The position numbers and the translations under genes are program-made. A stretch of DNA of 64,000 nt, from the IMG/VR virus record IMGVR_UViG_2778261571_000004; one strand, 5' to 3'. This document shows, in pieces, positions 45,084 through 51,128 of the stretch. The DNA comes from a virus (Duplodnaviria; Heunggongvirae; Uroviricota; Caudoviricetes). The notes below the pieces were generated by a model, which made no database searches, had not been told where the DNA came from, and saw nothing but the letters and a program-made list of their open reading frames with translations. How positions within the stretch are numbered: the stretch's first letter is position 1; each line of letters begins with the position of its first letter.

Positions 45084-46646
45084 ATGAAAATGACAAGTAT
45101 TCAACAACGTGCAGAGCTTCATCGTCAAATCTGGCAAATTGCTAACGATGTCAGGGGTTCGGTCGATGGATGGGATTTTAAGCAATACGTTCTGGGCGCA
45201 CTTTTCTACCGTTTTATCAGCGAAAATTTTTCCAGTTATATTGAAGCCGGTGATGACAGTATCTGTTATGCGAAACTGGATGACAGCGTAATTACTGATG
45301 ACATTAAAGACGATGCCATCAAAACTAAAGGCTACTTCATCTACCCCAGTCAGCTTTTCTGCAACGTAGCTGCGAAAGCAAATACTAATGACAGACTGAA
45401 TGCAGATTTAAACAGCATCTTCGTTGCTATCGAAAGTTCTGCTTACGGTTATCCTTCAGAAGCAGACATCAAAGGTTTGTTTGCTGATTTCGATACCACC
45501 AGTAACCGCCTGGGTAACACCGTTAAAGATAAAAATGCCCGCCTGGCTGCGGTTCTGAAAGGGGTTGAAGGGTTAAAACTTGGTGACTTCAACGAACATC
45601 AGATTGACCTGTTCGGTGATGCCTATGAGTTCCTGATTTCTAACTATGCGGCAAATGCCGGTAAGTCAGGCGGTGAGTTCTTTACACCGCAGCACGTCTC
45701 CAGGCTGATTGCACAACTGGCAATGCATGGCCAGACCCACGTTAACAAAATCTACGACCCGGCAGCGGGTTCCGGCTCACTGTTGTTGCAGGCGAAAAAA
45801 CAGTTTGATAACCACATCATCGAAGAAGGCTTTTTCGGTCAGGAAATCAACCATACGACCTATAACCTGGCGCGTATGAACATGTTTTTGCACAATATCA
45901 ACTACGACAAGTTTGATATCAAGCTGGGTAATACACTGACTGAGCCGCACTTCAGAGATGAAAAACCGTTTGACGCCATCGTATCTAACCCACCGTATTC
46001 GGTGAAATGGATTGGCAGCGATGACCCGACGCTGATTAACGATGAGCGTTTTGCCCCGGCTGGCGTTCTGGCCCCCAAATCCAAAGCTGACTTTGCGTTT
46101 GTATTACATGCACTGAACTATCTTTCTGCCAAAGGTCGTGCTGCGATTGTCTGCTTCCCGGGTATTTTTTACCGTGGCGGCGCGGAGCAGAAAATCCGTC
46201 AGTATCTGGTCGATAATAACTATGTCGAAACCGTGATTTCACTGGCACCGAACCTGTTCTTTGGCACCACCATTGCAGTAAACATTCTGGTGCTGTCTAA
46301 ACATAAAACGGATACCAACGTTCAGTTTATTGACGCCAGCGAACTGTTCAAAAAAGAGACTAACAACAATATCCTGACCGATGCCCATATCGAACAGATT
46401 ATGCAGGTATTTGCCAGCAAGGAAGATGTTGCTCATCTGGCGAAATCTGTCACGTTTGAGACCGTTGTCGCGAATGACTATAACCTGTCGGTAAGCAGCT
46501 ATGTGGAAGCGAAAGATACTCGCGAAATTATCGATATCGCTGAGTTGAATGCAGAACTGAAAACCACGGTCAGCAAAATCGACCAGTTGCGTAAAGATAT
46601 TGATGCGATTGTGGCTGAAATTGAAGGCTGCGAGGTGCAGAAATGA
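45084..46646 (+). CDS. hsdM: Type I restriction-modification methyltransferase subunit (type IC, EcoR124-like)
   Basis: 520 aa; SAM-binding and NPPY (NPPYSVKW) N6-adenine methylase motifs; N-terminus matches remembered EcoR124I HsdM. Confidence 0.9.
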
Positions 46647-47890
46647 GCGAGTTGAGTTATCTGGAAAAATTGCTGGATGGGGTTGAGGTTGAGTGGTTGC
46701 CATTGGGGAAACTAGGTGAATTAGTTCGTGGAAATGGATTGCCTAAGTCTGATTTTACCGAATCTGGGGTTCCTGCCATACACTATGGTCAGATATATAC
46801 TTTTTACGGATTATCTACTGAAACAACAAAGTCATTTGTTTCCCATGAAACGGCGAAGAAGCTTAAAAAGGTTAACTCTGGTGATGTTGTTATTACTAAC
46901 ACAAGCGAAAATTTTACTGATGTTGGTAAGGCGCTTGTTTATCTAGGTAAAGAGCAAGCTGTTACTGGTGGCCATGCAACTATTTTCAAGCCAAATAGCA
47001 CTATTATTGGGAAATACTTTGCCTATTTCACGCAAACGGATTCTTTTGCAAATGAGAAAAGGAAATACTCCAAGGGAACTAAAGTAATTGATGTGTCTGC
47101 ATCGGATATGGCGAAAATTATTATCCCTATCCCCTGTCCGGAAAATCCCAAAAAATCCCTTGCTATCCAGTCTGAAATCGTTCGGATTCTGGACAAATTT
47201 ACTGCACTTACCGCTGAGCTTACCGCTGAGCTTACCGCTGAGCTTACCATGCGTAAAAAACAGTACAACTACTATCGCGACCAATTGCTGAGTTTTAAAG
47301 AAGGTGAGGTTGAGTGGAAAACTTTGGGAGAAGTGGCTCAATACTCGAAAACAAGAATTAGTTTCGAACTACTTGATGAAAGGAATTATGTTGGCGTAGA
47401 TAATCTGCTGCAAAACAGAGCAGGAAAATCATTATCTAATCATGTACCGACATCAGGTAAATTAACGGAGTTTATACCTAACGATATACTGATTGGGAAT
47501 ATCCGCCCATATTTGAAAAAAATTTGGCAAGCAGATTGTATCGGTGGAACAAATGGCGATGTATTGGTTATTCGTTGCATAGATAGCTCAATAAATACCA
47601 GATATCTATATCAGATTTTGGCAGATGACAAATTCTTTGAATACAACATGCAGCATGCTAAAGGAGCAAAAATGCCGCGTGGCAGTAAAGAGGATATAAT
47701 GAAATACCCAATCCCTGTACCGCCACTCACCTTGCAAGCTCGCATTGTCGAAATACTCAACAAATTCGATACCCTGACAAACTCCATCACTGAAGGTCTT
47801 CCGCGTGAAATCGAATTACGCCAGAAACAATACGAATACTACCGTGATTTACTGTTCAGTTTCCCAAAACCTGAAACTGTCAGTAATTAA
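46643..47890 (+). CDS. hsdS: Type I restriction-modification specificity subunit
   Basis: 415 aa, two target-recognition domains separated by conserved central region with TAEL x3, 4-nt overlap with hsdM. Confidence 0.85.
47207..47242 (+). repeat. Three tandem 12-bp repeats (cttaccgctgag) encoding TAEL x3 in HsdS central region
   Basis: Direct read of DNA; in type IC HsdS, TAEL copy number sets the spacer length of the bipartite target. Confidence 0.8.
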
Positions 47891-48011: not shown

Positions 48012-51000
48012 ATGACTCATCAAACACACACCATTGCTGAATCCAATAACTTTATCGTCCTTGATAAGTACATCAAAGCTGAGCAAACAAGCGACAGCTA
48101 CCAGAGCGAATCGGACCTGGAACGTGAACTGATTCAGGACCTGCGGAATCAGGGTTATGAATTTATTTCCGTAAAATCACAGTCGGCAATGCTGTCCAAT
48201 GTTCGGGAACAGCTTCAGAGCCTCAATGGTGTGATGTTTAATGACAGCGAGTGGCGGCGCTTCACGGAGCAGTATCTGGACAATCCCAGCGATGGTATTC
48301 TGGATAAGACCCGTAAAATCCATATCGACTATATCTGCGACTTTATTTTTGACGACGGGCGTCTTGAGAACATCTATCTGATCGATAAAAAGAATCTCAT
48401 GCGCAACAAAGTGCAGATTATCCAGCAGTTTGAACAGGCAGGTTCTCATGCTAACCGTTATGACGTCACGATCCTGGTTAATGGCTTGCCTCTGGTGCAA
48501 ATCGAACTGAAAAAGCGCGGCGTGGCGATTCGTGAGGCTTTCAACCAGATACATCGTTACAGTAAAGAGAGTTTTAACAGCGAAAACTCCCTGTTTAAGT
48601 ATCTGCAACTGTTTGTCATTTCTAACGGCACCGATACCCGTTATTTTGCCAACACAACAAAGCGCGATAAAAACAGTTTTGATTTCACCATGAACTGGGC
48701 GAAATCAGACAACACGCTGATTAAAGACCTCAAAGACTTTACCGCTACCTTTTTCCAGAAACATACTCTGCTGAATGTTCTGGTGAACTACAGCGTGTTT
48801 GACAGTAGTCAGACGCTACTGGTGATGCGACCGTACCAGATTGCCGCCACCGAGCGCATTCTGTGGAAAATTAAGAGCTCCTTTACAGCGAAGAACTGGT
48901 CAAAACCGGAAAGCGGTGGGTATATCTGGCACACTACCGGTTCTGGTAAAACCCTTACCAGCTTTAAAGCCGCGCGTCTGGCAACAGAGCTGGACTTTAT
49001 TGATAAAGTCTTCTTTGTGGTCGACAGAAAAGACCTCGATTACCAGACCATGAAGGAATATCAGCGTTTTTCGCCAGACAGCGTCAACGGCTCGGAAAAT
49101 ACCGCAGGCCTTAAACGAAATCTGGATAAGGACGATAACAAAATTATCGTCACTACTATTCAGAAACTCAATAACCTGATGAAAGCAGAAAGCGACCTGC
49201 CTGTATATAATCAGCAAGTGGTGTTCATATTTGATGAATGCCACCGCAGCCAGTTTGGAGAAGCGCAGAAAAACCTGAAGAAGAAATTCAAACGCTATTA
49301 TCAGTTTGGTTTTACCGGCACCCCTATTTTCCCGGAAAACGCCTTAGGCTCAGAAACAACCGCCAGCGTATTTGGTCGTGAATTGCATTCGTATGTAATT
49401 ACCGATGCGATTCGTGACGAAAAAGTGCTCAAATTCAAGGTGGACTACAACGATGTGCGGCCACAGTTTAAGTCTTTAGAGACAGAAACTGACGAGAAAA
49501 AACTAAGTGCGGCTGAAAATCAGCAGGCGTTTCTTCATCCCATGCGTATTCAGGAAATCACGCAATATATTCTGAATAATTTCCGCCAGAAAACTCACCG
49601 TACCTTCCCTGGCTCAAAAGGTTTTAATGCTATGTTGGCAGTGAGCAGCGTGGATGCCGCGAAAGCCTATTATGCGACGTTTAAACGGTTACAAGAAGAA
49701 GCCGCTAATAAATCGGCTACCTATAAACCGCTGCGTATTGCGACAATCTTCTCCTTTGCCGCTAATGAAGAACAAAATGCCATTGGTGAAATTTCCGATG
49801 AAACTTTTGATACCAGCGCAATGGACAGCAGTGCTAAAGAGTTTCTGGACGCTGCAATTCGTGAATATAACAGCCATTTTAAAACTAACTTTAGCACCGA
49901 CAGTAACGGTTTTCAGAACTACTATCGTGATTTAGCCCAGCGGGTTAAAAATCAGGATATCGATCTGTTAATTGTCGTTGGGATGTTTTTAACCGGCTTC
50001 GACGCTCCAACATTGAACACGCTATTCGTCGATAAAAACTTGCGTTTTCACGGCCTGATGCAGGCATTTTCCCGCACCAACCGTATTTATGATGCAACTA
50101 AAACCTTCGGTAATATCGTCACTTTCCGGGATCTGGAACGCTCAACCATCGATGCCATAACGCTGTTTGGTGACAAAAACACCAAAAATGTAGTGTTAGA
50201 AAAGAGTTATGCAGAGTATATGGAAGGCTTTACTGATGCTGCTACAGGTGAAGCTAAACGCGGCTTTATGGCAGTAGTTTCAGAACTGGAACAACGGTTC
50301 CCTGACCCTGCCAGTATTGAAAGTGAAAAAGAGAAGAAAGACTTCGTTAAACTGTTTGGCGAATACCTGCGTGCCGAGAACATCCTGCAAAACTATGATG
50401 AATTTGCCACGCTGAAAGCCCTGCAACAAATCGATCTTAGCGATCCTGTTGCGGTAGAAAAATTCAAAGAAGAACATTATGTGGATGATGAAAAGTTCGC
50501 TGAATTGCAAACGATTCGTCTCCCTGCTGAACGCAAGATTCAGGATTATCGTTCTGCCTATAACGATATTCGTGACTGGCAGCGCCGCGAGAAAGAAGCT
50601 GATAAAAAAGAAAAATCAACCACTGACTGGGATGACGTGGTTTTTGAGGTCGATTTGCTGAAGTCTCAGGAAATAAACCTGGATTATATCCTTGGACTGA
50701 TTTTCGAACACAACAGACAAAATAAAGGCAAGGGCGAAATGATCGAAGAGGTCAAACGCTTAATTCGTTCAAGCCTGGGGAACCGGGCGAAAGAGGGCCT
50801 GGTGGTCGATTTTATTCAGCAAACGAACCTGGATGATTTACCAGACAAAGCCAGCATCATTGACGCGTTCTTTACCTTTGCTCAACACGAACAGCTACGT
50901 GAAGCAGAAGCGTTGATTAAAGAAGAAAATCTCAATGAAGAGGCGGCGAAACGCTATATTCGCACGTCTTTAAAACGCGAATACGCCACCGAAAATGGCA

Positions 51001-51128
51001 CAGAATTAAACGAGACATTACCAAAACTTAGTCCGTTAAACCCGCAATATAAAACGAAAAAACAGACGGTTTTCCAGAAAATCGTCACGTTTATTGAAAA
51101 GTTCAAAGGAGTAGGTGGGCAGATATAG
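48012..51128 (+). CDS. hsdR: Type I restriction endonuclease subunit
   Basis: 1038 aa; SF2 helicase motifs (TGSGKT, DECHRS) and N-terminal nuclease region; length equals EcoR124I HsdR. Confidence 0.9.

Follow-up and report, generated by a model that had tools for sequence, protein, structure and literature searches.

The targets of type IC restriction-modification (R-M) systems are bipartite sequences carrying N6-methyladenine (m6A), in which a half-site of 3 nucleotides (nt) is separated by a gap of N6-8 from a half-site of 4-5 nt. In this family, the length of the first connecting helix of the specificity subunit sets the gap between the half-sites (PMC3874165). EcoR124I contains two units of the TAEL repeat and recognizes GAA N6 RTCG, and EcoR124II, which is described as a variant of EcoR124I and is carried by plasmid R124, contains three units and recognizes GAA N7 RTCG; each TAEL unit adds one base pair (bp) of gap (PMC3874165). 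Hybrids of EcoR124 and EcoDXXI with altered repeat numbers showed specificities shifted as predicted, and the change in copy number has been attributed to unequal crossing-over at the 12-bp repeat (PMC3874165). EcoDXXI (TCA N7 RTTC) and EcoprrI (CCA N7 RTGC) are type IC systems with three TAEL repeats, and in EcoprrI the anticodon-nuclease gene prrC is embedded in the type IC prr operon (PMC3874165). In this study, we analyzed a stretch of 64,000 nt, hereafter the window, from the tailed-phage record IMGVR_UViG_2778261571_000004 of IMG/VR. An original prediction, made from the letters alone, had read positions 45,084 to 51,128 as a complete type IC system whose specificity subunit, HsdS, carries three TAEL repeats. 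We conclude that this locus is very likely an intact type IC (EcoR124-family) R-M system, carried as cargo in the variable region of an SSU5-like Escherichia coli phage-plasmid; its expression, activity, spacer length and half-sites are what we infer. This family is thoroughly known, and the system adds to it a new allele that combines uncharacterized target recognition domains (TRDs) with three TAEL units.

The locus consists of three intact open reading frames (ORFs) on the plus strand, namely hsdM (45084-46646; 520 residues) for the m6A DNA methyltransferase subunit, hsdS (46643-47890; 415 residues) for the specificity subunit, and hsdR (48012-51128; 1038 residues) for the translocase and endonuclease subunit. 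According to the ORF coordinates, the last 4 bp of hsdM are shared with hsdS, and hsdS is separated from hsdR by a gap of 121 bp. The order hsdM-hsdS-hsdR, with hsdR separated from the overlapping pair, is the type IC layout, and all coordinates and sizes given earlier for hsdM and hsdR agree with the ORF list. EcoR124II (EcoR124/3) of plasmid R124 shows the same gene order and sizes and has three TAEL repeats as well, but the system described here is carried by an SSU5-like phage-plasmid.

Type I families were taken as defined by sequence, complementation and antibody cross-reaction; type IC subunits are interchangeable between members, and complementation partly defines the families (PMC3874165). 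In terms of sequence, HsdM is identical to EcoR124 HsdM (PDB 7bst_D) at 517 of 520 positions (99.4%) over its full length, with three substitutions, in a PDB sequence search. HsdR aligns with EcoR124 HsdR (PDB 2w00_A) over all 1038 residues with 2268 bits and an identity of approximately 98%, a figure based on about 17 substitutions counted over the approximately 970 aligned residues displayed. HsdM matches the NCBIfam profile TIGR00497 (hsdM, 649 bits) and the Pfam families HsdM_N and N6_Mtase, and contains the motifs DPAAGSG (residue 225) and NPPY (residue 302). HsdR matches TIGR00348 (hsdR, 770 bits) in NCBIfam and HSDR_N, ResIII/SWI2_SNF2, a T1R_D3-like domain and EcoR124_C (242 bits) in Pfam. 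Its PD-(D/E)xK nuclease motif (D151...E165-x-K167), Walker A motif GSGKT (residue 310) and DEAD-box motif DECH (residue 408) are all present. With this identity of HsdM and HsdR to EcoR124, the EcoR124_C match and the intact catalytic motifs, the predicted complete type IC system is supported. The exact HsdR protein is present in NCBI as WP_089632759.1, and an exact look-up of HsdM and HsdS in the protein collection gave no match for either. The miss of HsdM is likely due to the annotated start, considering that a gene call of 518 residues exists on the same contig, and that of HsdS probably reflects an indexing gap, as a call of 415 residues exists on the contig; we do not read it as novelty. 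An EcoprrI-type locus was also considered. No prrC-like gene is present, hsdM and hsdS overlap, and the ORF list gives no extra ORF inside the hsdMSR operon, including the 121-bp gap, and this candidate was ruled out.

HsdS matches Pfam Methylase_S, and its best PDB match in a sequence search is EcoR124 HsdS (7bst_A; 2.9e-75). The protein comprises an N-terminal conserved region (residues 1-22), TRD1 (approximately residues 23-157), a central conserved helix, TRD2 (approximately residues 231-356) and a C-terminal conserved helix. The TRD alignment with EcoR124 proposed together with the original prediction gave a divided result. On the one hand, the conserved regions of HsdS match 7bst_A, with identity at residues 1-22, approximately 158-229 and approximately 357-415. 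On the other hand, identity is limited to these regions, and both TRDs are divergent and unrelated to those of 7bst_A. The TRD regions gave no meaningful alignment to 7bst_A, and identity of the system with EcoR124II was ruled out on this ground, although the N-terminal, central and C-terminal regions of the two HsdS proteins are nearly identical. As neither TRD is related to its EcoR124 counterpart, the half-sites differ from GAA and RTCG and cannot be read off from EcoR124. The two proteins also differ in the repeat, as 7bst_A has two TAEL units and the HsdS of the window has three.

The closest full-length HsdS proteins are uncharacterized E. coli S subunits. Similarities of the TRDs in the PDB are weak, at 25-27 bits to the region of the EcoKI N-terminal TRD and to Thermoanaerobacter and Methanocaldococcus S subunits; a prediction of the half-sites was dropped, as the TRDs have no close characterized relative in the PDB. 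A literature search for a methylome matching these TRDs found nothing usable. Among 120 homologues, each TRD of the window recurs at 97-100% identity in combination with many unrelated partner TRDs; both TRDs are common, freely shuffled modules. The AlphaFold2 model of HsdS, computed with 40 homologues as input, has a mean predicted local distance difference test score (pLDDT) of 86.5, and the EcoR124I HsdS 7bst_A is its top Foldseek match in the PDB. In this model, the TAEL units (residues 190-201) are predicted to lie within a single continuous helix spanning residues 169-216.

Tandem Repeats Finder detected a perfect array at 47207-47248 on the plus strand, with a period of 12, 3.5 copies, 100% matches and the consensus CTTACCGCTGAG, and its translation gives TAEL x3 at residues 190-201 (nt 47210-47245). 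By chance, the two strands of 64 kb would be expected to contain about 1e-13 perfect 42-nt arrays of period 12. The three TAEL repeats predicted for hsdS are thus present, and the accompanying claim that the copy number sets the spacer length is borne out by the N6 and N7 targets of EcoR124I and EcoR124II (PMC3874165). By analogy with that pair, the spacer of the window enzyme would be one base pair longer than that of a two-repeat allele with the same TRDs, namely N7-type versus N6-type. EcoDXXI and EcoprrI share both the family and the three-repeat state with the window (PMC3874165).

The three-unit state is not peculiar to the window. Of 5426 complete E. coli genomes, 1254 contain the central conserved region of hsdS, with matches at 810 places on chromosomes and 624 on plasmids. 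The original prediction had stated that type IC systems are typically carried on plasmids or mobile elements; carriage by plasmids was observed at the 624 places, but "typically" did not hold in view of the 810 chromosomal places. The chromosomal type IC copies examined were all located in leuX islands, and among the loci of leuX hotspot 37 analyzed in the EcoSal review, 4% have type IC systems. From the 1344 matching records, 60 were sampled at even spacing; of these, 26 (approximately 43%) showed the three-unit length, 30 (50%) the two-unit length and one five units, and three gave an odd or partial match. Accordingly, three repeats are a normal and common natural state. Representatives of protein clusters were rejected as a source of repeat frequencies, since clustering at 90% can merge alleles that differ by one unit; a perfect TAEL x3 occurs in none of the 120 cluster representatives.

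These frequencies also bear on whether the third unit could be an artefact of assembly or sequencing, the true allele having two units. The source of the window is a draft contig, and its hsdS is otherwise identical to two-unit alleles, as such an artefact would require. However, a typical read is longer than the 42-nt array, the three-unit length occurs in the 26 sampled complete records, and the closest SSU5-like relative also has three units. We consider an artefact highly improbable, and take the three-unit allele of the window as real.

Alleles with the TRD pair of the window were found with different unit numbers. One unit is present in P0009 and in the Logan contigs L013-L016, two units in P0001-P0007, three units in the window and in the chromosomal locus L001, and five units in L017 (1557-1616), on the chromosome of E. 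coli 2018-02-2CC, where the frameshifted gene adjoins an IS3 element. Two pairs among such alleles differ by one unit only. In the first, a single 12-bp unit is the only difference in hsdS between the window and the two-unit P1-like alleles (L007-L011), with no mismatch in 1236 nt, and the hsdM genes of the window and of the P1-like phage-plasmid L007 differ by one single-nucleotide polymorphism (SNP) in 1563 nt. In the second, the chromosomal hsdS of CFSAN061769 (L001, three units) and that of S56 (L002, two units) show no other difference, and both are located in chromosomal leuX islands. According to these comparisons, one 12-bp unit was gained or lost very recently between the two-unit and three-unit forms, within the time of about one substitution. 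Considering that two independent pairs show no other hsdS substitution, the unit change is fast relative to point mutation. The claim that copy-number changes switch specificity thus agrees both with the unequal crossing-over described for this family (PMC3874165) and with two natural hsdS pairs differing by one unit only.

The window and the P1-like allele (P0001, L007-L011) represent the same kind of pair as EcoR124I and EcoR124II, with two versus three repeats. In the literature, EcoR124II is presented as a variant of EcoR124I (PMC3874165), whereas the present pairs are found in separate natural replicons, namely SSU5-like and P1-like elements and leuX islands. On sequence grounds, the pairs would be a natural confirmation of the EcoR124I/II type of change, not a new principle.

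On P1-like phage-plasmids, the two-unit allele P0001 is flanked by the phd/doc addiction module on one side and by a gene for a polynucleotide kinase/phosphatase on the other, and the P7-like plasmid pMCR_SCKP-LL83 shows the same layout, with doc and pmgS named (PMC5786510). The P1/P7-like type IC loci (pMCR_SCKP-LL83, phi456 and vB_EcoM-673R5) carry the same cassette as the window, with the first 3.6 kb nearly identical (PMC5786510). They differ in the phage-plasmid family, the insertion site and the repeat, as the cassette of the window lies between hot (theta) and a truncated DUF4942 gene and has three repeats, whereas the P1/P7-like cassettes lie between phd/doc and the polynucleotide kinase/phosphatase gene and have two.

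The one-unit allele of L013 (8001-9224) contains CTTACAGCAGAG, with different synonymous codons and the same TRD pair as the window. In L013-L016, hsdM is called at 468 residues, and the context is chromosomal-island-like, with an autotransporter gene and an IS21-like element. The hsdS of L017 is annotated as fragmented, and its five units indicate that the array is able to expand past three units, at least in a decaying gene.

The spread of natural copy numbers (1, 2, 3 and 5) and the two independent two-/three-unit pairs without other hsdS substitutions would also be expected if the TAEL array were a high-frequency switch resembling phase variation, with two-unit, three-unit or longer alleles mixed in one culture and specificity toggled as in type I systems of the phasevarion type; TAEL-adjacent repeats have been discussed as possible switches (PMC7383803). 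However, the array holds only 3.5 copies of a 12-bp unit, compared with the much longer classical tracts of 1-7-bp units, and frequent switching would be costly, as sites newly recognized in the DNA of the cell itself would not be methylated. Tandem Repeats Finder gave this short array only, with no long simple-sequence tract, and the ORFs and annotations show a single hsdS and no adjoining recombinase. We therefore regard such a switch as unlikely.

In the locus of the window, P1-like and SSU5-like versions are combined into a recombination mosaic. Homology to the P1-like type IC loci begins at 44985, and the region 44985-51128 is 98% identical to the P1-like L007. The similarity is uneven. 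In binned mismatch counts, a near-identity tract of approximately 3.6 kb (45010-48600, plus strand), containing hsdM, hsdS and the start of hsdR, differs from the P1-like locus by three SNPs (45464, 48308 and 48563) and by the 12-bp unit, seen as a gap at 47236-47247. From 48650 to 51150, the window shows approximately 115 differences from L007 compared with approximately 49 from the SSU5-like L003 (pAPSLC-111K), and upstream of about 45400 it is identical to L003. The hsdR gene is itself mosaic, with its first approximately 600 nt in the P1-like near-identity tract and the remaining 2.5 kb closer to SSU5-like relatives. Since the shared tract is nearly identical, the repeat unit may have been gained or lost around the time when the segment was exchanged between the P1-like and SSU5-like families.

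A further difference was observed within the SSU5-like lineage. The hsdS of L003 (18644-19882), the closest phage-plasmid relative sequenced, shares TRD2 and the three TAEL units with the window but not TRD1, a case of a TRD1 swap within one phage-plasmid lineage. Homology of the window to the chromosomal island is confined to 45087-51163. A shared DUF4942 gene was considered as a recombination anchor between chromosome and phage-plasmid and was rejected, as this gene is found on one side of the cassette in the chromosome and on the other in the phage-plasmid.

Several points weigh against the reading of the locus as an intact and working type IC system with a lengthened spacer. The promoter-like site in the hsdS-hsdR intergenic region (47891-48011, plus strand), TTAACA-N18-TATTTT at 47918-47947, is a weak match with 9 of 12 consensus positions in a scan for the consensus only. 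Compared with EcoR124, HsdR has at least about 17 substitutions and HsdM has three, of which none falls within the recognized catalytic motifs. How the coiled coil accommodates the change of register caused by an added unit is not understood (PMC3874165). The literal count of N could also differ if these TRDs give another half-site length, although the one-base shift relative to the sibling should hold.

The first of these points relates to a locus that would be silent or only partly active, through methylation alone, poor expression or a crippled HsdR, so that it would be at most an orphan-like methyltransferase. Promoter-like matches are weak throughout, and the promoter and terminator scan gave matches near background level only; EcoR124 hsdR is transcribed separately, which the site at 47918-47947 would fit. 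The 3' part of hsdR is of other ancestry than hsdM and hsdS, making a new combination of subunits, and degraded relatives exist, with hsdM split by IS1 in L002 and an IS3 element beside the frameshifted hsdS in L017. Against this, the three ORFs are full-length, HsdM and HsdR are 98-99% identical to biochemically active EcoR124 subunits with the tested motifs intact, and type IC subunits are known to be interchangeable between members (PMC3874165). A silent or crippled locus is accordingly improbable in our assessment, and we retain the intact type IC system as the preferred reading.

The window was traced to its source by identity. Positions 42012-57128 are base-for-base identical to the NCBI contig NLNA01000013.1 of the E. 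coli assembly GCA_002229155.1, and the window is the first 64 kb of this draft whole-genome shotgun (WGS) contig of 106,661 bp. Positions 1-64000 are collinear with the 111-kb plasmid pAPSLC-111K at 97-99% identity, except for a few short breaks and the TRD1 segment of hsdS. The annotations of pAPSLC-111K include tail fibre, tape measure, capsid, portal, terminase, ParB-family partition, nrdAB, thymidylate synthase and dfrA51. The flanks of the window match the phages Cyrano and CMS-2020a, which we take to be SSU5-like. Carriers of this kind are plasmids of approximately 100-115 kb that encode structural proteins of siphovirus type, partition functions and a block of nucleotide-metabolism genes, and these features were found here. 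The collinearity with pAPSLC-111K, its phage and partition genes and the matches of the flanks to Cyrano and CMS-2020a together indicate that the carrier is an SSU5-like (pHCM2-like) E. coli phage-plasmid of approximately 107 kb. At least 38 PLSDB plasmids cover at least 80% of window positions 43000-53000, and R-M systems have been reported in an E. coli/Shigella clade of SSU5-group phage-plasmids (bioRxiv 10.1101/2025.09.12.675607). The arrangement of an R-M system on an SSU5-like phage-plasmid is already common and known.

The cassette lies in a variable region at 43644-51182, which holds hot, approximately 1.1 kb without annotated genes, and hsdMSR. Cyrano lacks an R-M system here, and its homology to the window extends to 43643 and picks up again at 51183. 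The corresponding stretch of Cyrano contains ea22/eae/eaa/ead-like genes together with an intact DUF4942 gene, whose product has 561 residues. Downstream of hsdR, an ORF of 158 residues on the minus strand (51187-51663) has no Pfam match and is an N-terminal remnant of the 561-residue DUF4942 protein, intact in Cyrano (L005, 7789-9474); the rest of this gene has been replaced by the variable region with the R-M cassette. Upstream of hsdM, the approximately 1.1 kb at 43958-45083 has no annotated gene in relatives and contains an ORF of 45 residues, hydrophobic by eye (44414-44551), and a minus-strand ORF of 74 residues without a Pfam match (44735-44959). The genes humD (43206-43595) and hot (43760-43957, encoding a homologue of DNA polymerase III theta), both on the minus strand, are P1-like and approximately 83% identical to phage P1; humD is common to the window and Cyrano, and hot lies inside the variable region. 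Farther upstream, at 39877-43168, metG (minus strand) and apbC (plus strand) form a housekeeping pair of chromosomal type that is also present on relatives and Cyrano, and looks like conserved cargo captured from the host chromosome.

By analogy with EcoR124I, an M2S1 complex of the window system would methylate a bipartite target at one adenine per half-site. When HsdR is added, unmethylated targets would trigger DNA translocation driven by adenosine triphosphate, followed by cleavage, and in this way the lysogen and the phage-plasmid would be protected from incoming phage and plasmid DNA. Each TRD would read one half-site, and the three TAEL units in the central helix would set the distance between the TRDs. 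The enzyme would thus recognize the same two half-sites as its two-repeat P1-like sibling, with a spacer one base pair longer. Because of this one-base-pair difference, the siblings would have distinct specificities, and methylation by either would leave the sites of the other unprotected. The 12-bp unit change itself may proceed by unequal crossing-over or slippage.

In summary, both the family of the locus and the type of mobile element that carries it are known, the contig is public with its genes already called, and the locus holds little new biology. The sibling alleles and the mosaicism are the sole addition to the first reading. They provide clean natural examples of the EcoR124I/II type, with one-unit hsdS differences in two lineages and three kinds of replicon, and such pairs could be used to measure the effect of a one-turn helix extension on the spacing with TRDs other than those of EcoR124. 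They also show that phage-plasmids of the P1-like and SSU5-like families have exchanged a defence locus. We further considered that the TAEL copy number may act as a fast specificity toggle among competing phage-plasmids, an idea that we hold as speculative and rather doubtful. If it were true, SSU5-like and P1-like elements could each restrict the other as well as unmodified relatives. The independent chromosomal pair and the one-unit and five-unit alleles hint at recurrent unit changes, and should these prove frequent, the repeat would serve as an evolvable dial in warfare between elements rather than a rare laboratory curiosity.

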